Of a stretch of 60,000 nucleotides of DNA, positions 35,458 through 60,000 are shown piece after piece. This DNA comes from Amphiscolops sp. MND2022 (lineage: Eukaryota): NCBI GenBank assembly GCA_964187785.1, contig OZ076409.1, positions 67,458,001 through 67,518,000 on the forward strand, read 5' to 3'. The stretch's first letter is position 1. Every line of letters begins with the position of its first letter. The position numbers were made by a program, and so were the translations under genes. A model generated the notes under the pieces. It ran no database searches and had not been told where the DNA came from. It saw only the letters and a program-made list of their open reading frames with translations.

Positions 35458-36097
35458 GCTACTCCGTCCTGAATCTTCATTTGATACTGACCAGCTCTTT
35501 TTCAATCAATGATTTTCTTTTTAGTTGAAGAGAAAATAATTTTTCTAGTATTAGTTTTCCTAAGGTAACGTAACCAACGCTTAAAAACGCATTTTTCGCA
35601 ATAGGGATGTTCTGTCAGAAACAAATTCGTCTTGGCACGAACTTGGCTTGGGTGCGAGTATAGCCAGTAAGTTCGTACTTTTGGGGCTTTTGAAAAGAAT
35701 CGTAAAAAACCCAATCGTTGAAAGATGAAAACTTTTCTTAACAGTACAACATTTTTTTCACGTTTGTTGCAGGGCCTAGGCCCTGCAACAAACGTGAAAA
35801 AAATGTTGTACTGTTAAGAAAAGTTTTCATCTTTCAACGATTGGGTTTTTTACGATTCTTTTCAAAAGCCCCAAAAGTACGAACTTACTGGCTATACTCG
35901 CACCCAAGCCAAGTTCGTGCCAAGACGAATTTGTTTCTGACAGAACATCCCTATTGCGAAAAATGCGTTTTTAAGCGTTGGTTACGTTACCTTAGGAAAA
36001 CTAATACTAGAAAAATTATTTTCTCTTCAACTAAAAAGAAAATCATTGATTGAAAAAGAGCTGGTCAGTATCAAATGAAGATTCAGGACGGAGTAGC
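35458..36097. repeat. Perfect 640-bp palindrome (320-bp arms, no spacer)
   Basis: Centre AGGGCCT|AGGCCCT at 35777/35778. Identical 70-aa ORFs at mirror positions on both strands. Symmetry breaks at 35457/36098. Confidence 0.95.
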
Positions 36098-44129: not shown

Positions 44130-44825
44130 GGTTTAGTATCATTTCACCCCACGTTCATTTCACCCCATATCATTTCACCCCATGTTCATTTCACCCCAGG
44201 TTCATTTCACCCCAAATTAATTTCACCCCACGTTCATTTCACCCCACATTTAAATTATCAAATGCGTCTCAGATTAATTACTAAAGCCACCCAATTTCAA
44301 TCTTAGCGCTAATAGAAAAGCGTCTTGAATCTAATTACCAATTAGATAAGCAAACGATGCTTTCTATGTGAACCACAAATTGAAACCGAATAGTTTCATT
44401 TATCGGAATTGTAATACTTCTGAAAAAAGTGCTGAAAAAAAACATTTTTCTTCTGTCAATCAAAATTTACAATTATGAATGTTGCGAATTTTCAGCGAAA
44501 AATTTCTTATTCGGTGTTTCTACGGCAAAAAATCCTACAGGTCAAAAACTGACAATCAAATCAAAGCTGACTCAAAGACAGTAGGCATCTAAGGTTAATT
44601 GCTAATTGGTTAATTAAGGCGAGACGCTTTTGTATAATTACAATATGGTGTGAAGTGAAAATGAGGTGAAATGAACGTGGGGTGAAATGATTGTGGGGTG
44701 AAATGAATGTGGGGTGAAATGAATGTGGGGTGAAATGAACGTGGGGTGAAATGAATGTGGGGTGAAATAATATGGGGTGAAGTGATATGGGGTGAAATGA
44801 TTTTAGGGTGAAATGAACGCACACC
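44130..44825. mobile_element. Foldback/Mutator-like non-autonomous element with minisatellite TIRs
   Basis: 9-bp TSD GCATACTAT (44121-44129, 44826-44834); inverted arrays of a ~15-bp CATTTCACCCCACGTT unit at 44140-44248 and 44647-44820. Confidence 0.85.
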
Positions 44826-45391: not shown

Positions 45392-45700
45392 CTAAGCTGA
45401 CGAGAGTTGAATCTGAAGTCTTTCGAGATCGATCGCGCACTGCTCGGCTTTTTGAGTAGCCTCAGCTAATTCGGCCTGGGCTGCCTCGAACTTCGTTGTC
45501 TGCGACTCGACTTCGGATTTCTTGGTCTCGATTCGGACCTGAAGACTATCCTTTTCGTCTTTGCATTTATTTACGTCCTCTTTCCATTGCTCCAGAAGCT
45601 CGTTCGTGTACTGATTGGCCAGGATTTCATTATCTTCTTCAGCCGAAACGGAAACGACCCAAACACTCAAAAGAGCTACGATTACGTAAGCAGAATACAT
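45392..45700 (-). CDS. Small secreted acidic coiled-coil protein, 102 aa, family unknown
   Basis: ATG start, hydrophobic signal peptide ending VSVSA, heptad-rich E/Q/K/A body, two Cys; acceptor-like tttaattcag 17 nt upstream. Confidence 0.65.
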   Translation of the reverse strand: MYSAYVIVALLSVWVVSVSAEEDNEILANQYTNELLEQWKEDVNKCKDEKDSLQVRIETKKSEVESQTTKFEAAQAELAEATQKAEQCAIDLERLQIQLSSA

Positions 45701-46346
45701 TCTCTGGTGTTTGGAATCTGAATTAAATCTTTAATATTGAGTTTTTAAATGCTAGGCTCTTCTCAGGTATGAAACTAGTTGAATGCTGCTGAAAAACTGG
45801 TGAAAACTAATTCCAAATATGCACGTTCTATTTAATTTCAACGATCAATTATGTTACGAAGCGAAAACTTATGCTTGCTGATTTTTCAGTGCGTGCCAAA
45901 AATTCTTGATATGCCTGGTTTAACTTTCACATGGTGTCTTTCAATGTAGTTTGAACAAAACGTGATTGGCAGTGAACTGAGCTAAACTTTTGGATGCATA
46001 GCAGCTAAATTAAAATATGGTTTTAATATGGTTTGAATGCAAACTTGAATAATTATAATTTCATAGCTTTGAATTTTCATGTCAAATTGAAGAACATGTT
46101 TTGGTTCAAGTTATTCTACAAATCCCGAAAATTATATGAGTCGTTTTTTGGATATTTGATGTCCAAGTTTTTTTTCCTAAGTAAATTTTGAGACTTAGGA
46201 TTACAGTCTCCAGCTATTACTATAGTTTTTAGCCATTTATGTTGAAAAACTTCTCCTGGGTTTGGTGTTTCGTCTGGTTGGTGGAGCAAAGTGAAAGCTG
46301 TTGACGCTGACATTTATTATTATCAAATGACACCCCGTACTGACAT

Positions 46347-46752: not shown

Positions 46753-48116
46753 TTGTCAGTACGGACTCTATTGGTCATGTGAGCTGTTAAAAAGTTGTGT
46801 GGTGGTTTCTTTTAGATGTTTTATTACTGACATAAGAAGTCTAAGATTTTAACAGCAGAGTCGTCTTGTCTTATATCTTGTAGCTAGCTAGTTCTGAGTA
46901 CAATCTATTTCTGAGATCTCAGTTCTGGAAGTGTCTGAGGGAAGACCGATCGTCAGGATGAATTCTCAATTTCTCCGAGTAGATATATTCTATTAACTAG
47001 GGTAGGTTTCATCAATTAACAATGTGACAGCAACAGGATGAATCGGGGAAGCTTGGTACAGGATATATTAAATGAAGTTTCTTCTAGAATATTTAGCTTC
47101 CAAATTAGATTACATTTACTAATTACTTTGGTTAAGAGTTCAGAGTATTTCAGATTTATTGAATCTTTGAGGACATGCATCATGGCATCACAATCAACCG
47201 GGAATTTAAAATAAAACTACATATATGCACTTTGGGTTTGAGGAGTTCTAAAAATTTTTTGTTTTAGATGTTACATGCATGGGTTTGTTTCATATGTGTT
47301 GCACTGGAATTGCATGAGTTTCGTTCTGTAGAGTACCAAACTTAAGGGGTGAGAACAACCTAAGACGATTTGACTTCTTACGTCATAGACGATTCAATTG
47401 GTGCAAAAAGGTTCAAGCAAGGTTAAAGTTCTTTCAGTTTTTTGACTGACAAGTTTTTATGAAGTTATTGTTGACAACTATTTATTATTTCATGTTTCTT
47501 TTTCGTATCAGCCATCGGCTTGTTTGAAAAAAATTTTTCATCAACATGAGTTAGTCAGCATTGAAAACTTTTCAAGTTGAAGAATCAAAGCGTGAAGTTG
47601 TCAATGAGTTGTGAACCAACATTGGCGGGTATGTGAACCAAAAGTGAAGAAGTTTCGAAAAGTCAAGGTTCTAGTGAGAGTTCATTTTCAACTAAAGTGA
47701 AGAGTAGAGCAGAAGCAAAAGTTGAAGAAAACTTTGGCAATTTCAAGTTTCAAACATTGGAAAACGAGAAATTACAGTTTTGAAGAGTTCAAAAGAAAAA
47801 TTTTCCAAATTTTTGGGAATGTTTTTGGGAAGTAAAATAAAGGTGGAGAACATGTTGTGTAAAAAAAATTTTGTCCAAAAATCTTAGAAAATTTCTTGTG
47901 CTGTAGGTAGGACTTGTGTTCTGTAAAAGATGGGGATTAGAGATATATTTTTAAAGTGTATTATAGATGTAACAATATAATTAGATAAGATTATGTCAAT
48001 GTACTATACACAAGACAATGGAAGCAGATAATATTGCGGTTACAAAGATAATTATAGGTTGAATTTTGTAGGGATTTTGCAACAGAGGGGTAATTATAAT
48101 ACGATTATTGAAGATT

Positions 48117-48653: not shown

Positions 48654-49106
48654 TATTGAAACAGAGAATTTTGCGATGGAGGATGAGTTTGGTGTTGGAT
48701 CGGGTCATAGAGTTCTAATTTTTGAGTATACCCGAAATCTTTAAGCATATTATTAAAAGCGTCAGTGGCTTCTTGGAGAGCAGTACGGAAGTATTGATCC
48801 TTTGAAGTTAAGGGCGGAGTTTAGGACGAAAACAACATTAGATGCTGTTTCGCAAATTGCAATTTTGGGTGCTTCAAGGTGGATTCGCGAGTATTGCCCA
48901 AATGTAATTTTTTTCTTCTTTATTTGCGTGACATTGTAGAGGACCTTTAAGAAAGCAATGAGACATTTTGGCGTAATTTTGTTCTTGTTTATTTCGAGCG
49001 AGAGTTTAAATGCCATGGTGTGAAATATGGCGGCTTTGAGGCTATGCACTTTCGAGAAATCTGAGGTCATGGTAATAATGTCGTCTGTTTCAGCATTTGG
49101 AGCCAT
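48654..49106 (-). CDS. ORF-Z: unassigned 114-150-aa ORF
   Basis: ATG ORF 48762-49106; a frameshift near 48800 would extend it (..NFKDQYFRTALQEATDAFNNMLKDFGY..FQ*). Confidence 0.4.
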
Positions 49107-49522
49107 GATGTTGAGGGTTGGAAGATCGTGAAGAGAGAGAAGTGGAAATGTTCTGAAAGAATGTGGATGGAGGAGGGAGAAGAGAAGATGTTTCTAAAAC
49201 AGAGGAAGTGTAAGAAGAATGACAATATCAAGTCAAAAATGTACAACAAAATTGGGTGCTAGAATGTATCTTATGTAATGTTGTGCTATTTTGTTTTGTA
49301 TGTCTTGTATTGTAGTTGTTTGATAGAAGTAGTTATCTTTTTGACATGTACTGTAGGAAAGAATGTTGTACTTGAAAGATAGTCCTGAGATTTCATTCAA
49401 AAGCAAGATTTTACTTTAAATAAGTAGGTAAAAATTAAAATACCTTTTATAGTGTGCCAAAGATGTATCATAGAATGTACCAGAGAAGAAAAATTAAGAA
49501 CGTTTTATTACCTGTAGAAGAC

Positions 49523-50909
49523 TTAATGAAGATTAGTTGAGTTAAAAAGAGTAGTTATAGTTTCCAAAGCAGATTGAATTGCTTGGGATGATTGAGTGAT
49601 GTGTTGAGAGTCTAAATCGAGTGTCTGAAGGAGTTTGTGTGTTCTGTCGTAGCAGCGTAGGATATGTGTGAGTGTTGTGATAGGTGTTTCAGAGGAGTTT
49701 CGTTTATAGGGTTCAAGTAATGTTGTCATGTCGCGAAGTGTTCGGTTATTCAATACAGAAGAAAGTTTGTCAGGAGCGTTTTTTATAGGTGAAGCGTGTG
49801 ATTTATGTTCAGTTTTGTGTTCAGCTTGTACCATGAAAGAAATATTTTTAGCAGAAATAAAGAGAAGTTCATAGTAGGAACACGTTTGCTTGTAGAGTGC
49901 TGTATAGTAAGTTCTATCTTTATCGTCAAGTGGAGAAGATACTAGGTGTTTAATGACAGTGAGAGGTTTGGCAATTTGAGTAGGAATGTTGCAAGGCAAC
50001 AAAAAGTCATCGTAATGTATGACATATTCTTGAGGTACAATAAGTGGGCGTGAAGTATTGTTATATGGAAGCAAACAGAAGTATTGTTTTATAGGGTCAT
50101 AATTTCGAAGGTAGCCTGTTATACAGGAGTGGTCCAGAGTGTACATATTTGTCATTGTGAACGGTGATGTATATTTGTAATTGACAAAAATGTGATTTTG
50201 TGGTTTCGTGTATTGTAGGAATTTAGTATACGTTTGATGATGAGTAGCTTTTTGTGCTATAGAGAGAAAAGATGGATCAGATTCATCTGTTTTGAGATCG
50301 TAGATAGGTGGTCGAAGAAAATTGAATTGTAGAGAGAAAATTTTAATTCCATTATCGAGCCAATATTGGTATGGACCCATTATTTTGGAGGCAATGGATG
50401 TGAAGAAGTCTTGATTTTTGTCATATAAGCGAAATGAATAGTCGGTAGGATGCACATATAGAGAAGTTAGCTGTGCTTTAAAGACGAAATCGTCAGTAGA
50501 AAGGATTGGGATCAAATGATCATCGCGATTCGTGCAAAGTGAAAATTTTGAAGGGATTGAAGGAGGATATATTGGTGATGAAAGAAAGATTGGATCTTTC
50601 ATAATTTCATATCGTTTTTTTTGGAGGAGGTGCTGTCGGTTGTGTATGATCAGTATCATCTTGTGGAGGAGTAGGTTTTGAATTTTCGTGTTCAACTTTT
50701 TTGTGTTCCATTTGTTCAAGAAAAGTTGGAGGTGTTTGTTCAAAAGTCTCAATATAGAGAACAGGAGAATCATTTGAAAGAGGTCTAGTTATGAGATCTG
50801 CTGGGGTTGCTTGTTCAAGCTGTGTTTGTAGATCGATTTGTGCTTGTGTCATTGTGTTTTTGAAAATATCAACAGTCACAGTGTTATCTATTCCAAGAGG
50901 CCTTATCAC
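49523..50909 (-). CDS. ORF-Y: unassigned ~440-aa accessory ORF after env, frameshifted at an A8 run (50615-50622)
   Basis: ORF 50607-50909 (..TAPPPKK) joins ORF 49523-50773 (RYEIMKDPIF..) at the homopolymer; about 360 protein-like codons follow. Confidence 0.6.
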
Positions 50910-51118
50910 TTTAAAGTGAAAGTACTATAAATTACACTAACGAGTGGATTTATCAACTTTAGTTGAAAAGTTATTGAAGACGGTTATTATTAGAGATGTA
51001 TTATTGGGCTGAGGAAGATGAACTTCTGCAAGAGTTTCGAGGGGTGGAGGAGTAGCAATTGTGAAGAGATAGTAGGCAAGTGTGCTGGAAGAGAGTTACA
51101 AAAAAACTGAGAGAGTGT

Positions 51119-53833
51119 TCAAGAAGATGGAGGAGGAAAAGGATAGTTTATCCGCGAATAGATTTTAATTGGAGTATCCGTAGCAGAAGTGACAGGATTG
51201 TTAATTAAAGTGTCATGTTGAGTAGTTAGATTGTCATTCGGGTGAAAGTTTTTATGAGTATAATTAGGAAGTGGAGGATGTTGAACAGGGGAGAAAGGAA
51301 GTGGAGCTGTTTTTTGGTGAGAATTGTGGTGTCGTTTTGGAAGCAAGTTAAATTTAGGAAATTGAACTTTGTTAGGACGTTTAGTATAGAAAAGTGGAGA
51401 GAAGGTAACATCTGTAGAAGGATTAATTAGATTTGGAGAAGTGTCAATAAAATTATCTAAGGATTTGGATTTTAAAAGTGTACTTTTGGGTTTTTTGTTT
51501 TGAGTCTCATGGAGGTCACTGACCATTCGTGCTGTAAGAACATTAAAAAAACCATGTGCTGTAGAGCTAAAAAAGGTAATATTATTTTTGAGATTATATT
51601 TAATGGATATTGTTTTGTAAAGTTTGACAATGAGTGTAAGAGTAGCTTGTACAAAAAGAAATGTAGAAAAGTATATACCACATTGTGTGAGAATGTAACA
51701 AGGGTATCCAAAAAGTGCAATAAAAGCATCAGAAAACCATGTAGGTGTAAAAAGAGGAGTTAAATTCAAGAGTTTATCATGGAGTCCTACACGTAATGTA
51801 TTATAAGGATTACCAGAATCTTGAGGGGAATCTGCATCATAATTTGGAGTATTAGATGAAATGAAGGAATAACTAAGAGCTTTGTCTAACAATTGGAGTG
51901 TAGAGTCAGAATGTTTAGAAAATAAAATACGGTTCCAAAATTGATCAAGTTCTGCATTTGAATATATACCAGCATCTTGGGCTGTAAAAGTATTAGGACG
52001 TATCGTAGTTTTGATTTGTGAAGGTGAAAACATTAGTGGAGGTTTGCGTTTAATAGGTTCAGGTCCAAGAATGTAAAAGTCTTGATCACTTGAATCAGGA
52101 TCTAGTTCAATAATGTTACGTGTACGTGGATTATTGTCACAGGTAATTGGTGTAGCATAGTCATAGGTTTGTCTTGTAATTGGATCAACGTACATTAAGG
52201 TATCTTTAAAATGTAAAAATATACGGTCAAAGCATCTATCTGCTTTGTATAAAGGAGATAAAAAATGAGGACAGTCATAAAGCCAGGCGATTGAGCCTTC
52301 AACGTATATAAAATTACTTCTATTACCGGTTAAAAGGAAACCAGCAAGTTGAGGGTTTTGCACTGACATTGCGAGTATTGTAAGGAGTTGGTTTCGTTCT
52401 AATTCCCATATTGTATGAAGAGTATTTAGTTCTTGTACTGTCATTGATCTGAAGACATGATTAATAGTATAATCTATTTTGGTGTTTATATGTGCATCAT
52501 AATCAATGGTAGCAAAATTGTTTGAGACATTTAATGCAGGGAATACGAATTTGTTATTTGAAGTGTCCAATACTATTTTACCAGAAATATATTCATTAAT
52601 CATGGAATGAGGATTGGGTTGTCCTGTATGCATATTGAAACCATCAGTGTATGTAACAAAAAGGTCTGAATATTGTGTAGAATATAGAGGGTCTGGTTTA
52701 CCACAAAAGGTTTGTGCTGTAGGAAAAACTTAAAATCTTGAAAGACTTGGGTTGTTTGGATGTTGTGTATGGGGAGCATAAACATAGGGATATTCTGTAC
52801 TTTTGATACCAGAAGTTGTTTTAGTTTTTATTGGGTGTGGAGAATGTACAAAAGAGTCTGTTTCAATCCAATATCTATCTTCAATTTTAGTCATACGTCC
52901 AATAAAGTCTTTTAATGTAAAAATTAGACAATAATCATCATTGAACCAAACAAGAGTAAAAGGGGTTTTTGTTGTGGGTTTACAGAAACCATCTGCAAAA
53001 TAGCAGGGTAATGTATGTCCATCGATTATCATGTCATTAGATGTGTCATCATATGTAAGTTCTACTTCAGAAATTTCTAGTCGCCAACTAACTAAGTTGA
53101 CTTCGAATTGGTGATGAGCAGGACAGTTATGATAAGGGTTTTGAGTAGGGTCATATATGCAGTTTTTATCAGCAGGCATAAATGTAAATGTACCTGTATA
53201 CATTTTGTTCAGTTGATATACAGTGAAAGGAGTTTGATATTGCTCTAAACGTTATTGAAAATAATGGTCTTCTAAGAGTGTAAAAGTTTTATTGTAGTGA
53301 AGGTTATTCAGTATTTTATCATTTGTACCATTTAAATGTCCTATAATGTTTTTACTTTCTACTGGATCAAGAGTAACAGGGAGCGTTAATGTATTATGAT
53401 TCCACACGGTTCTATCAACACGACGGTATTTTACGGAACCTTGAAAGCATATTTTCCATTCTTTCTTTGCATAAGCAACACATTTGAAAGCTTTGATGCG
53501 TTTAGCTTTAGCTCGAACATATACACGGGCTTTAACACTTGCATGTTTAATGTCAGAAAGAGCTTCAGTGCATTGTTTTACATTAGGTAAATTAAATTGT
53601 CTAAAATTGTGTTGTTTTGCACAGTCATAATGAGAAACCATGAGATTCGTAATATTTGGGTCATCCGATAGAAGATAGTTTTCTGTGTCAGAGGGTGTTA
53701 TGGGTATGGAAAAGGTGAAGTTAAATAAATGTGAAAAAAGTATTAGATTTGTTATGTAAAAGGTTGTGTAGGGTTTAAAAAGATGTTGTATATTTGAGAC
53801 CGGAATATGGGTTACAGAAGACAATTTTGCCAT
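51119..53833 (-). CDS. env: env: envelope glycoprotein resembling chuvirus/class III fusion proteins, two in-frame TAA (53252-53254, 52730-52732)
   Basis: Three listed ORFs share one frame (~904 aa from ATG 53833). Signal-like FYITNLILFSHLFNFTFS, YDC..L..V..C, FCGKP..LFV, ELERNQLLTILAM..NP..AG, C...RCFDR...YVDPITR...PITC, and TM segment YILTQCGIYFSTFLFVQATLTLIV. Confidence 0.8.
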
Positions 53834-55013
53834 ATGTGATAGTGGGTATATTAAGATCGCGTTCAAATTCAATATGTACTACTTCAAAAGGAGCAGGAGA
53901 GGTTTTATGTTCTTTTTTAGAAACGTGAATGATTGGGTGTGGATTTAATCCTTGAAATTTGACTTTGACTTCAAATTTAAGTTCTAGATTTGGTGTCTGA
54001 AGGCGTTTTAGTTCTGTTTCTTTGCGTTTGTGAGATAAGAGGTCGTTGTTATTAATGAAACGTTCTGCAAGAATTGGAAATCGGGGGTCGTTTTGTGGGT
54101 CGTAGATGGTTATACCATCGACTCTAAGTGGATAGTCAGCAAAATTTGGAGTTGGGGGTCTAGAGTGTTCTGCAGTATAGTATTCGGGTAGTCTAATATG
54201 TGCAGGAACAGGAGTAGGGATTACTACTTGTGAAAAAAGGTCTCCTGATAAAAATGCAGTCTGAGAGTTAGATGAGAGTAATGAAGCGGTTTCAAAGCCA
54301 GAAGTAAAATAAGGAGATTGAAAGAGTTCTGAAGATTGTGTGTCGGAGGACAATGGTTGAGCGTGTTGTCGTACAAGTCGTAGTGCAGAATTGCTAGAAA
54401 GAGCGAAAAAATTGAGTGTTGAAGTGTCTGTACTGAGTCTACGTGAAGGGAGGTCGCGAAGATTATATCTATGTTTAGGTACAAAAAGTGAACTTGTGTC
54501 TTGTGATGGAGCGTAGTCTGAAGTATTGTCTAAGAGATTTGAGAGTAATGTAGAAGGTTTTCGAAGAGGTTTTAATGGTGGATAAAGTTTTGAAGAAGTA
54601 GTGCTAAGTTCTGATGGTAATTTCAGTGAAGGTAACTTTGTATTTTCAGTATCAGGGATTTGTACAAGATTAAGTTGATGTTGTAGTCTAAAAGTTTTGA
54701 TAGCTGTAGGATGTTTGTAAGTTACGTATTGTTCAACACTTTCAGGGTTTGGTATGTGTATAATATGAGTGTTAATAGGAGTTTGTTGAGTACGAGTGTT
54801 TATAGGGATTTCAGTTATAGGTGGTCTATGAAGAAGTGATGAAGAGGTGGTTTCAGAGACGTATGATCTTGGTCTTTTAGAAGGAGTAGTAGGAGTTACA
54901 TTACTAGAGTTTGTAGTGTTTGATACTGAAGATTCAGGTGTAGAAGGAATACTTGGAGCTGATGGAGATATATCAGAGGGAGAATCCAGGATTGTTGAAT
55001 TGTTCTCAACAGG
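53775..55013 (-). CDS. ORF-X: unassigned frame between pol and env (413 codons open; S/T/P-rich N-half, globular-looking C-end)
   Basis: The frame of ORF 53775-54353 stays open upstream to a TAA at 55014-55016; no intact ATG in this copy. Confidence 0.6.
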   Translation of the reverse strand, partial: PVENNSTILDSPSDISPSAPSIPSTPESSVSNTTNSSNVTPTTPSKRPRSYVSETTSSSLLHRPPITEIPINTRTQQTPINTHIIHIPNPESVEQYVTYKHPTAIKTFRLQHQLNLVQIPDTENTKLPSLKLPSELSTTSSKLYPPLKPLRKPSTLLSNLLDNTSDYAPSQDTSSLFVPKHRYNLRDLPSRRLSTDTSTLNFFALSSNSALRLVRQHAQPLSSDTQSSELFQSPYFTSGFETASLLSSNSQTAFLSGDLFSQVVIPTPVPAHIRLPEYYTAEHSRPPTPNFADYPLRVDGITIYDPQNDPRFPILAERFINNNDLLSHKRKETELKRLQTPNLELKFEVKVKFQGLNPHPIIHVSKKEHKTSPAPFEVVHIEFERDLNIPTITYGKIVFCNPYSGLKYTTSF

Positions 55014-55105: not shown

Positions 55106-58100
55106 TTACAATTTTGAGGGTGTAATAAAAAGTCTATATTCTAATTTGGGTTGTTGTCGTAGTTTATAAGTAGTTTTTGTGGTTCTGTCAATTAGAGGAG
55201 GAAGTGAAGTTGTTTGGTTATTAGATGAGTGTCTTGATCTGTCACTAGAGACATTAGTGTGTGGGGTATTAATTATATGTCTATATAAGGAGTTGTCATT
55301 GGTTGAGGGAGTCAAAGATTTGTCATTGGATGTTATAGATGGTGTATTTTGATTGGACGTACTAAATGATGATGGTGTCACAAATGTTTGAGACGAATTA
55401 TTCATGGTGGATGATGTCATGGATGTTCGAGAATCTTCTTCTGATAAGGATTCGTCTGAGTTAAAAGGGGAAGAATAACTGTTTGCATATTTGGTAGGTT
55501 GTGGAATTTGGAATTGAGTTGTGTCTGAAAAGCGCATAAAACTACGCAAATGTGGATATAAGAGTGGTTCTTTTGGATAATATGGAATTAAATGATTTCT
55601 ATGATAGTGTACTGTAGAGCCATCTTGTGCAAGTAGTTCAAATGTAACATCTGATAATCTATCAATAATTTTGTATGGTCCAATCCGAAGGGCTTTTAGT
55701 TTGTCAGAAAAATGAACATGTGTAAAATTGCGTTTTAAAACAAAGGTACCAATAGGAAGGGGTTTACCTTCGTGGTAAGTTTTTGTAATGTATGCGTGTG
55801 AATTGATTTTTTGTAAAGTGTTTTCGTATATTGTGGAATAAATTTGTAACATAACAGTTTCTACAGCGAGAAACCAATAGGGGATGGGTTTTGAAAGTGT
55901 TTTATAAAAAAATGGGTTTAAATCTGATTTATCATAATGGGAGTGTTCTGGAAGTTGAGAGCAATAGCGTGAAATACATGTTTTAGAGGTGTCTCGGTTA
56001 AGGTTTAAATCAAACGTAAGGGGTATTCTGGATCGGGTGTGGAAAACAACTTCGTGATGTGAAATATTGAGTTCCGAAAGTGGTTGTGAATTATGTGCAT
56101 AAGCGTACCTATGGACTTGGAATGCCCAATCTTTAGGTGTGTCATGTAATAACATTCGTAGATGGGTACCAAGATTTCTGTTTTGTACTTCGACAAGGCC
56201 ATTTGTCCAAGGAGAGTAAGTTGTTCTAGGAGAATGACGAATTCCCATAAGTGTACAAAGGTGTGCCATTTCTTTATTTACATATTTTGATCCACGATCA
56301 GTGACAAGATATATAGGTGGTCCAAATTTAATAATCCAATGGTGTAGGAGAGTTTTGATAGCAGTCTTTGCGTTGTTTGATCTGATGGGTACTGTAACAA
56401 CAAAGTGACTAAAAGCATCAATTATGACATGTATGTAGGATTTGTTGTGAGAAGGAGGATTAATAGGTCCTTTAGTGTCCATTGAAATTCGATAGTTGAA
56501 AGATGGAGCATGTTCTGAAAATGATTGTGTAGGAGCAGTTTGAATTTTCGTATTGAAGTGTTTGTTACGTTGACATTCAATACAGTCATGTATGAAAATG
56601 GAAAGCCATTTTTCAAGGAATGGAATGTAGTAATACTGTTTAAATGTATTGTATGTAATTTTCATACCAGTGTGAGAGTGTTCATGGAGTTTGTTAAAGG
56701 CAGTTTTGAACATTCGAAAAGGAAGACATATACGAGTAGTGTCTTGTACAAAATTTGGAGTAAAGGATTGGTTTATAACAGTAGGGTTTGTAATATATAG
56801 GCTAATAAGGTTTGTGAACTCGTCAATGAAAAATTGTGAAAATCTTTTGTAATATACATGTAAAAATGGAGTACCAGTGATAATAGGTGTTACAAATTCG
56901 GGTTTTTCATTGTTTAATAACCAAGAATAAACAGTTCTAAGAACCGGATCTTGGGATTGTTGTTGTTGAAGAGTTTTTATGTCTAATGAGTAATCATCTG
57001 GAAGGAAGAAACCTTGAAAATAGTTTTTGTACTTCAAAAATGATGTATCATAGAAAGGTATAATTTGTTGACAGTGTGTGAGAGATGGTAAATTTGGTTG
57101 TACACTTATTGCAGAAACAGATTTTGGTGAGGTAGTGTGAGTTATTTGGTTAAGAGTAGAATAGTTTTCTGTTTGTAATGTTGTGTCTTGTAGGAAGGAA
57201 GAGTCAGATTTTGGAATTCTGGTGTATATATGATCTTCGTCATCGCTTGAAACGTCAGTTTCATTAAGTAAGAGAGATTGTTGATGAAGGGTTTTATTGT
57301 TCTTTTTTATAGGTGTCTTGAACTTAGTTTGAAAAGGAGTTATAGATTTGAATGAGAAAGATTGTAACGGTTCGACAACAATATCATTTCCTTTATCATT
57401 GATACGAATAGAGAATTGATCTGTACCATAATCAGCGAGAATTGGATGAGAGTCATGTTTTTGATGAGATAAAATTTCTCCATGTTTAATTAAGTAATGT
57501 ACAGGTTTAAGAGTGTTATCTTGTAGAAGTGCAAAATCGATTTGTGGTGGAAGGTGTTTATGTTTTAATTGGTTTAGTTGTAATTCAGCTTTTGTGAAAG
57601 AGCGACTCAACATATCGGCAACAGAGAGATTTTTTCCAGGAGTGTGAATTATTTTGAGTTTTGAAAATTTTGTCAATTGCATTTGAGCTCTGTAGAAACG
57701 AGGACTGAGATTACCTTTCTTCATAAAACAATGTAATAAAGGTTTGTGATCAGTAAAAATGTGTATTGGATGGGGAGAACCTATGATAAGAAATTCATAG
57801 ATTTGAAGTGTGTGTACTATACCAAGAAGTTCTCTATCGAGTGTAGAGAGTTTTTGTTCTTGTGGATTAAGTATACGAGAGTTGTACGATATGACTTTCA
57901 TTTTGTTTTGTTCATTTAACTGGAATAAGACAGCGCCTAATCCAATAAGGGAAGCGTCAACTGTAATGAAAAATGGATGTTTTGTATTTGGTATTGTTAG
58001 TTCTGTTTCAGAAGTGAGAGACATTTTAAGTTTTTGGAAAAGACTTTCGTGTTCGTCTGTCCATTTCCAAGGAGTGTTCTCATGTAAAAGATCGTAAAAT

Positions 58101-60000
58101 GGTTTGAGATTAATATGTAGTTTTTCAATAAATTTGGTGTAAAAATTGAGTGCGCCAATGAAACTCATTAGGGCAACTTTGCCAGTTGGAGAAGGGATTT
58201 TATGGATAGCTGCAATTTTCGAATGGATTGGTTTAATTGTATTGTAACCAATTTCATGTCCAAGGAATTTGACTTTAAGAAGCATGAAAAAGGATTTTTC
58301 AGGAGTTAGTTTAAGATTGTTTTTTGTACTAATAATGTCTAGTTGTTCTATGAGTTGGAACATGTGTTCTTTAAAATCTGATAAAAGTAATATATCGTCA
58401 ATGTAGACAAGAGCGAAACCTTGTTCTATAAGAGTTTTAAAGAAAGTAGACATTTGTTTTGTAAAGAAATTTGGGAGTCCTTTCAGACCATAAAAGCCTC
58501 GGATAAAAGCGAAAAGTTTATCTCCGGAAGAGAAACTAGTAAGTTTTAGAGTGTCTTCATCAAGAGGTGTATGTGCATAGGCATACATAAGGTCAATAGC
58601 AGATTTGTACTTTTTATTTGCGCGTGCTAATTGTGGAGCAAGAGGTTCAATAGGCCAAGATTCCTCAGAATGTTCTGTATTGGAATTAAGGTGTCGAGCG
58701 TCTAATACACATTTTATTGTATCTCCCTTGGGGATTATAATGAGAGGGTTTAAATAAGTTGTGCCATAAACGGGTTTGTCTTGAGGAGAGGAACCAATTT
58801 GTTTGATAATGTTATATTTTTCAAGTTCTTTGAGAAGTACGTTAAGTTTGTATCGGTAGTGAATAGGGACTTTGGAAGGACGTTGTGTCATAAGTTGAGC
58901 ATTTGGTTTAAGTCGTATACGAAAGGGTGTTGAAATTTTTCCAACATCGTTTTTATGAGTTGCATAACATGTTTTATACTTGAGTAACATATTGCAAAAA
59001 GTAATGTATTCTGTATCTGTATGGTCAGAAAATTGGAAGTTAAATTTATTGATAAAATTGAGATTTTTAGAAGTGTATGGTAGAGAAGGAAAAATGCGTT
59101 TTTCGGAAGTGTGAGAAGTAGGCTGAACGTTTTATAAAGGAGAAGTTTGATTTGGAATGTCGTCATTAGTCATATAAATTTGATGTAGAGAGAATTGAGG
59201 AGAAGGGGTTGTAGGATCATCATATTGTACAATATAGTTGGTTTGTGGAAGTGGTTCTGTAATTTCAGGATGATAAGTATGAGTAACATTATGTATTAAA
59301 GTATTGATGTCATTAACCTGGAAGAATTTAGGTTTTTCATTAGTAATTGGAACTTCAATGTATCCAATATGTCCTGTAGGTAGTGTTGCAACATGTTTTG
59401 AGGTGTTCTGAATAATAGTTGCACAAATATCTGGTTTGTCATCTGTAAATACTTCAATGAAATTGAAATTTGTACGAAATTTGGTAGCAAAATAGGTATG
59501 AGGTACTGAAGGAAAGAAGTGGTTTTGTGGTGTAGTTGTAAAATGAAGATTATGATAATTTTTTATTGGAAAGTGTGCAATTTTTGAAGACTTGGGTTTT
59601 AGACGTATTTGAGTTTTTGAATTAATTCTATAAATGTAAGAGAAGTATGGATAATCTTTGGATAGGAGTGTTGTGAACTTTGCATAATTTGGGTGTGTTT
59701 TTGATTGGTATTTAAATTCGAATGTAAAGTCTTGTATGTTTATGTTTTGTATATTGTCTTCAAAGAATGGTGTGCCAAGGATGTTGTATTTGATATCAGC
59801 TACTGCGAAAGCTACTGAAAAGTAACGAGAGTCTTCATCAATAGTGGTGTTCAAAATTATATTTGCATAATGTAAAATAGGAACTTCAGTTTGGTTTGCA
59901 ACGGTTAATGATTTGGAATTTCGAGTTGGTCCAACATCAGAGGTGTGATTTGATCTGATATCTAGAAGTTTTGTAAGAGTTATGTATGTTGGGTAATTGA
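55106..60000 (-). CDS. pol: pol polyprotein (protease C-part, RT, RNase H, integrase with GPY/F), one in-frame TAA at 59132-59134
   Basis: NILGTPF (PR), FYGLK and YIDD (RT), DAS...ELL...TDHKPL (RH), HEHSH...CIEC zinc finger, DTKG/TDRG/NGLVE catalytic DDE, IGPYKI. ORFs 59132-59854 and 55106-58990 share one frame. Confidence 0.95.

Follow-up and report, generated by a model that had tools for sequence, protein, structure and literature searches.

The 60,000-nucleotide stretch of the Amphiscolops sp. MND2022 genome analysed here (contig OZ076409.1, positions 67,458,001 to 67,518,000; hereafter the window) contains, on its minus strand, the 3′ half of an approximately 18-kb long terminal repeat (LTR) element of the Ty3/gypsy type with a gB/chuvirus-type env. 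The analysis supports three additional open reading frames (ORFs), X between pol and env and Y and Z downstream of env, as conserved accessory protein genes of this env-bearing element. X, which encodes no methionine, probably starts at a CUG codon on the mRNA that would also carry env, whose own AUG would be reached by leaky scanning.

Table 1 Features of the element in the window (positions are those of the window)
Feature	Position	Strand	Basis
pol portion of the one gag-pol frame	55106..59131	-	Pfam RVT_1, RT_RNaseH, rve, Integrase_H2C2
Predicted CUG start of X, with A at -3 and G at +4 (strong context)	54987..54989	-	RNN-CTG-G conserved in four families
ORF X, 404 amino acids from the predicted CUG, Met-free	53775..54989	-	dN/dS, motifs, C-domain model
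env, gB/chuvirus-type fusion glycoprotein	51119..53833 (ATG 53833)	-	PF24664
ORF Y	49523..50852 (ATG 50852)	-	dN/dS; in all four families
ORF Z	48654..49106 (ATG 49106)	-	pN/pS A vs B, shared-variant dN/dS
3′ LTR, 413 nt, TG...CA ends	46780..47192	-	99% identical to 5′ LTR in L021 over 413 nt

The order pol, X, env, Y, Z had been proposed in a first-pass annotation of the window. It was recovered here, with a variable last slot, in four diverged families, and X, Y and Z together span about 3.0 kb, as that annotation had claimed for its extra frames. In the 1.07-Gb assembly, Y as query yielded 101 scored matches out of 9213 candidates. The best of these provided 39 further 3′ halves of the family to which the window copy belongs (family A; 19 from the full-query group and 20 from a shorter-match group), and 20 5′ halves were fetched too. 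Families B, C and D, represented by 10 copies each from the same genome, were reached via distant Y homologues. A single gag-pol frame, X, env, Y and a fourth ORF follow one another in all four families, with cross-family identities of 72–94% for reverse transcriptase and RNase H (RT-RH), 50–76% for env, 34–68% for X and 36–70% for Y; the distance from pol to env is 1268–1694 nt.

Among 40 family-A copies, X is unbroken in 17, env in 3, Y in 18 and Z in 22, the count for Y being biased because the copies were picked through Y matches. Family B is young, with copies 97–99.7% alike, LTRs 98.4–100% identical and a length of 17.8 kb; X and env are unbroken in 9 of its 10 copies, Y and Z in all 10, and gag-pol in 4. 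The corresponding numbers in family C are 10 for X, 7 for env, 10 for Y and 6 for gag-pol, and in the more decayed family D 5 for X, 1 for env and 10 for Y. For one Y homologue, P0254, the present assembly contains no match above 50%, which suggests that the lineage reaches into another genome.

Selection was measured as the ratio of nonsynonymous to synonymous substitution (dN/dS), both between families and within family A. Between natural unbroken copies of families A and B, dN/dS is 0.16–0.18 for X (0.09–0.12 in its C-terminal half), 0.11–0.12 for env, 0.13–0.16 for Y and 0.12 for gag-pol. For Z, the proportion of nonsynonymous differences (pN) is 0.26, against a saturated synonymous proportion (pS) of 0.76–0.85. 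For shared variants, defined as those common to at least three family-A copies, dN/dS is 0.08 for X (33 nonsynonymous and 140 synonymous), 0.08 for env, 0.06 for Y, 0.03 for Z and 0.06 for pol. There are no shared stops, and every shared indel in X is a multiple of three. Control frames assessed on the same variants give 1.6 (X read in +1), 7.4 (X read in +2) and 1.09 (an 88-amino-acid frame after Z). Set against controls of at least 1.09, the low ratios mean that X, Y and Z code for proteins and have been kept as the element replicated. Singleton variants in family A have a dN/dS of 0.47–0.75, in line with decay after insertion. The claim that the extra frames are accessory genes is thus borne out by purifying selection and by recurrence in four families; the check that the first-pass annotation had suggested, ORF conservation and dN/dS, returned conserved frames and ratios of 0.03–0.18, not near 1. 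The 88-amino-acid frame itself was rejected as a gene, given its ratio and frameshifts in 24 of 28 copies.

The start of X is unusual. Methionine is encoded by 0 of 1753 X codons, versus 180 of 14962 codons of env, Y and gag-pol (one copy per family), and none of 39 family-A copies has an in-frame ATG; X therefore cannot be a normal AUG-started gene. Its stop-to-stop frame in the window extends from 55013 to 53775 (412 amino acids), and the length of X over the families is 404–450 amino acids. Cross-family similarity begins at a Leu-Asp pair encoded by RNN-CTG-GAT. In each family the conserved codons of X begin with this CTG, and the length of open frame ahead of it ranges between 18 and 132 nt. 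The RNN-CTG-G site is kept in 37/38 copies of family A (of 40 given, two lack the site and one is uncovered), 10/10 of B, 10/10 of C and 7/7 of those examined in D (three rearranged copies excluded). A 23-nt family-B motif with this CTG has 208 exact matches in the genome. CTG is rare elsewhere, accounting for 1 of 233 Leu codons in family-B gag-pol.

AUGs are scarce in X out of frame as well. The density of ATG drops from about 10 to 0–2 per 500 nt precisely across X in every family, and reaches zero over 1348 nt in family C2. Where a His, Asn, Asp or Tyr codon is followed by G (NAY-G), so that T as the third base creates an out-of-frame AUG, T is present at 9/34 pairs in X versus 461/602 in the other genes (Fisher p 3e-9, the families not being independent); X codons take T freely where no AUG would result. 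The few leftover AUGs open frames of 1 and 2 codons in family A and of 1, 11 and 17 codons in family B, and family C has none or one. At its 3′ end, X terminates 59 nt inside env (A and B) or a few bases ahead of the env AUG (C and D). The combination by which non-AUG starts are recognized, that is, a conserved near-cognate codon in strong context and an AUG-free upstream ORF, was found, and the CUG together with the purge of AUGs, neither of them noted in the first-pass annotation, points to leaky scanning for env rather than to one spliced mRNA per gene.

In the proposed scheme, X would start at the CUG on a subgenomic X-env mRNA, generated by splicing or from an internal promoter. Ribosomes passing the CUG would scan through the AUG-purged X and then start at the env AUG, and sharing one mRNA would fix the ratio of X to Env. 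With 8 kb of AUG-rich gag-pol upstream, some subgenomic route would be required, and Y and Z would come from separate mRNAs, because scanning cannot pass the AUG-rich env and Y. Several observations weigh against this scheme. In synonymous shuffles with the protein fixed, the loss of AUGs is weak in A and B (p 0.04–0.18, env AUG counted) and in one C copy, and strong in another C copy only (p 0.003–0.007). No stable hairpin was detected downstream of the CUG in any of 5 representatives (z -1.6 to +2.0). In family D, an ATT located 39 codons upstream is another near-cognate codon whose context is strong. Finally, one to several AUGs lie between the pol stop and the CUG in A, C and D, so that either the mRNA 5′ end or an acceptor would be close to the CUG, or these AUGs would be bypassed.

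Four alternatives to parts of this picture were weighed. The extra frames could be neutral by-products of a C/A-rich, stop-poor strand, with the gaps in Met and AUG following from composition; the strand is indeed strongly skewed, long shadow frames do occur, and the mononucleotide expectation for ATG in X is just 11, with 4 observed. This reading retains almost no probability and is already refuted by the selection tests, that is, by the dN/dS values, the lack of shared stops and the shared X indels, all multiples of three; the frames are moreover conserved across four families, and the S/T/P-rich part of gag keeps 3 Met in 370 amino acids. A second alternative makes X the 3′ exon of a spliced gene that takes its AUG from a leader or gag exon, with env on its own spliced mRNA. 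It would account for the lack of Met in X, is favoured by acceptor-like pyrimidine-AG runs between pol and X in B and C, and has a precedent in CERV of Cer1, a spliced accessory protein in a gypsy-type element (PMC10309623). We nonetheless consider it improbable: in B, C1 and C2, no AG occurs in the open frame before the CTG or in the following 57 nt, so that an in-frame acceptor cannot reach the conserved N terminus of X, and the loss of out-of-frame AUGs and the fixed CTG with its Kozak context are left unexplained. Equally small odds attach to a reading without a subgenomic RNA, in which ribosomes reinitiate past the pol stop of the full-length genomic RNA, or enter internally there, and still begin X at the CUG. 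The distance from the pol stop to the CUG is just about 80–120 nt in A and B, and a search for spliced genomic retro-copies at two candidate family-B acceptors gave 2 matches at one, which were full copies of the ordinary kind, and none at the other. Against this, the spacer in C and D measures 300–350 nt and contains several AUGs, and the frame upstream has 2700 codons, after which reinitiation is normally poor.

The remaining alternative concerns origin only and is compatible with leaky scanning from the CUG. X, env and Y might have been captured together from a negative-strand RNA virus, as a matrix (M) or phosphoprotein (P) gene, a glycoprotein gene and a further gene, with the translation signals inherited. 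The env matches the Monjiviricetes fusion family; many viruses of this type carry M just before the glycoprotein gene G, their P genes are S/T/P-rich, and chuvirus-like glycoproteins have reportedly been captured by LTR elements (PMC7642597). The viral contigs, however, gave no relative of X or Y, only one 20-residue chance match, and the C-domain of X has no fold match in BFVD or PDB. A joint capture is accordingly unlikely, if somewhat less so than the splicing and reinitiation alternatives. The suggestion in the first-pass annotation of a co-captured viral module is not supported, no viral relative having turned up for X or Y, which diverge together with pol across the families.

The env gene is about 905–925 amino acids long in unbroken copies, with 16–19 Cys and 8–14 sequons. 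In the window it is in three pieces, separated by in-frame stops at 53252 and 52730, and the 3′ piece matches the Monjiviricetes fusion family PF24664 with an E-value of 3.5e-15. This family is detected in env of families A, B, C and D at 55–95 bits (cut-off 27), and a search of the env sequence against PDB gave no match. The env end (window 51119–51500 and its equivalents in B–D) resembles a long cytoplasmic tail and has a PPxY motif in all four families.

X has a two-part architecture. The N-terminal part is disordered, with 41–47% S/T/P and islands of conservation, and the C-domain is folded and β-rich. A model of the C-domain (residues 266–404) has a predicted local distance difference test (pLDDT) score of 78.6. 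Foldseek gave no match in BFVD and PDB at E ≤ 0.001, with model residues 1–65 barely covered; the best structural comparison (VIA Z 3.8) is to generic β-sandwiches, and the best ESM Atlas hit of the C-domain scores 0.80. X, Y and Z of all families gave nothing above cut-off in Pfam, and PDB profile searches with X and Y gave nothing. The best 120 of 267 matches in a protein search with X are close copies only, and no long fused forms of X (815–2325 amino acids) were found, which is weak evidence.

Short motifs in the N-terminal part hint at a function. PSAP is present in 4/6 family representatives, 9–11 residues past the X start in A, B and D, and LYPxL in 5/6 (A, B, C and D2). YNLR is the sole run of four invariant residues in the N-terminal part, where 34 of 265 columns are invariant. 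The chromatin site of foamy-virus Gag has the same Y-x-x-R spacing, with middle letters between Tyr537 and Arg540 that we take to be N-L; the difference is that this is a four-letter motif in an unrelated protein. Tyr537 and Arg540 are invariant in foamy-virus Gag and bind the H2A-H2B acidic patch of the nucleosome (PMC6042332, PMC12125541), and P(S/T)AP and YPx(1–3)L motifs bind Tsg101 and ALIX (PMC6874086). X might then be a particle-associated adaptor in which PSAP and LYPxL would recruit the endosomal sorting complexes required for transport (ESCRT) for budding and YNLR would tether the incoming core to nucleosomes, as in foamy-virus Gag. This is the least certain part of the scheme, and we regard it as possible rather than likely: PSAP is missing in C, LYPxL is missing in D1, and each motif arises by chance in 1–8% of shuffles. 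The earlier guess of a matrix-like protein stands only in so far as the PSAP and LYPxL motifs hint at it; the fold searches with the C-domain in BFVD and PDB gave no matrix protein.

Elements of the gypsy type with a gB-type env are known as "ancient errantiviruses" (Chary and Hayashi, PMC13524379). They share with the present element the LTRs, a tRNA primer site, the gag-pol-env order, a gB/chuvirus-like env and many near-identical copies, and as in these, an env resembling a class III fusogen follows pol here; as to particles, the present element is known from sequence alone. They are described as three-ORF elements, accessory ORFs being unmentioned in the passages searched, whereas the present element has three large extra genes, two to three small leader ORFs, a length of 18 kb and a single gag-pol frame. 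Three of its peptides had no match in seven supplements of that study. Outside insects, the prefilter of the survey admits pol-to-env distances of no more than 1000 nt (PMC13524379), which is less than the 1.3–1.7 kb seen here, so similar elements may be missed elsewhere.

A non-AUG start, a long AUG-free ORF and scanning to the next gene, a strategy that the pattern in X matches, are described for rice tungro bacilliform virus (PMC5902531). Like this element, it and the badnaviruses (Caulimoviridae) are reverse-transcribing; they differ as plant pararetroviruses without LTRs or env that use an AUU on pregenomic RNA after shunting, whereas the putative start here is a CUG, internal and upstream of env. 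Complex retroviruses likewise have accessory genes in the pol-env interval as well as beyond env, as in the vpu/env and rev/env bicistronic mRNAs, with env reached by leaky scanning (PMC5902531), and in foamy-like endogenous retroviruses from fish, up to 17 kb in length and with accessory ORFs (PMC6431247). The present element differs in its Ty3-like RT, its class III (gB-type) env and X, Y and Z that resemble no Pfam family. A retroviral-type RT and a class I surface/transmembrane (SU/TM) env, which define Retroviridae, are not what the sequence indicates, and the resemblance appears to be one of layout only. Additional ORFs near env have general precedent (PMC6431247, PMC5408684), and so do small ORFs before gag, as in sORF1/2 of the Drosophila MDG1 group (PMC11952523). 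Bdelloid ORF3 types, planarian Burro, plant Ogre, Cer1 CERV and sORF1/2 all exemplify ORFs that replace, follow or precede env or lie before gag, usually one or two per element and often enzymes or fused domains; none was seen to pair env with a Met-free gene that starts at CUG. The literature searched, subscription papers and Repbase being mostly outside its coverage, yielded no report of an LTR retrotransposon that couples env to such a gene, which is not proof of absence.

Env-bearing gypsy elements are treated as three-gene systems, and the present lineage shows a retrovirus-like complexity that arose independently. Three orphan proteins are selected as strongly as pol, across families in which X and Y are just about 35% identical, and a Met-free, CUG-started gene would escape AUG-based annotation. 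More tentatively, the lineage could be a true complex enveloped virus with at least five accessory genes, in which budding and nucleosome tethering would have moved from Gag to a CUG-started protein locked to Env by leaky scanning, with Y or Z as export or anti-silencing regulators. Young families (LTRs 98–100% identical, at least 208 copies for B) allow direct study of transcripts and translation.

The element runs past the window, with gag (Retrotrans_gag, PF03732), the leader and the 5′ LTR all in the neighbouring stretch, L021. The pol domains occur in the order RT (170–294), RH (357–489) and integrase (IN, 808–974) in Pfam, and natural copies have an LDSGA protease-like (PR) motif upstream of RT, giving the order PR-RT-RH-IN. 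The top PDB match of pol is Ty3 Gag-Pol (E 1.3e-46), followed by caulimovirus (3e-27) and foamy virus (4e-17), a ranking that places the RT closest to Ty3 among solved structures. The gag-pol gene is one frame of 2640–2700 codons with no frameshift. Its N terminus (L021 7820–7065 and the N-terminal part of gag) is a conserved domain of about 250 amino acids with no Pfam match, followed by a linker of about 350 amino acids rich in S/T/P/Q/N and then the capsid domain. The integrase C terminus (window 55106–55200) ends in a YxLR motif in the window, B and C, resembling the YNLR of X. The window copy is flanked by a 4-nt target-site duplication, CATG, and copies of B and D also have 4-nt duplications. 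A primer-site-like TGGTGCG motif lies beside the 5′ LTR in L021. The window copy is decayed, with env, Y, Z and gag-pol all broken and X unbroken, and is 21.6 kb long including an internal 3.56-kb tandem duplication (99% identical; window 58063–60000 and L021 2628–4565); another family-A copy (L077) has a similar one.

Y is about 442 amino acids long in unbroken family-A copies and is split in the window by a frameshift near 50.6 kb. The split form is a minority allele (39 versus 194 exact 29–30-nt matches in the genome) and absent from the B, C and D frames, and a programmed frameshift was therefore rejected. No transmembrane segment, fold or family was found for Y: ESM Atlas gave no usable match, an AlphaFold model has a pLDDT of 34, the best 120 of 284 protein matches are close copies only, and the best 150 of 559 matches in a 50% protein library are mostly fragments. 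Z is 150 amino acids long in unbroken family-A copies and frameshifted near 48.8 kb in the window. The last slot is variable. Z occupies it in A and B (61–63% alike), and the 158-amino-acid ORF of family D bears a faint likeness to Z (hhalign probability 6.6%, E 0.0055). In family C (for example L107 1823–2725, minus strand), it holds an unrelated S/T/P-rich ORF of about 300 amino acids with a Cys/His-rich C-terminal part, and family D possibly has a further 135-amino-acid ORF before the 3′ LTR (intact in 1/3 copies examined). Y and Z thus appear as orphans in these searches, and, with CERV (PMC10309623) as a guide, the likeliest role for one of the two would be to regulate RNA export or silencing.

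Two hydrophobic, AUG-started leader ORFs of 40 and 79 amino acids precede gag outside the window (L021 8199–8080 and 8057–7821, minus strand). In A and B they measure 39–40 and 78–79 amino acids, with shared-variant dN/dS of 0.24 and 0.12 from few sites; family C has three such ORFs and family D one of 36–37 amino acids. Unlike sORF2/FAST-like proteins, the peptides lack an MG myristoylation start. The leader at L021 8760–8660 (minus strand) contains a GGTTCTGAC...TAATTCCTGTCAG unit, repeated 2–3 times in tandem, which resembles a branch point and splice acceptor; the repeat occurs in A and B, and a different one lies at the same place in C.

Outside the element, the window contains a perfect 320-nt inverted repeat with no spacer (35458–36097), either a hairpin insertion or an assembly artefact, and inverted arrays of a 16-nt unit that resemble a miniature transposon (44137–44816). 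Just downstream of the element, a minus-strand frame with a signal-peptide-like start and a coiled coil (45392–45730) is probably an exon of the host. Elsewhere in the genome, G000:C67 and other contigs (L150–L163) carry histone genes in tandem arrays whose period is 3.63 kb; H2B, H3 and H2A were seen in L151.

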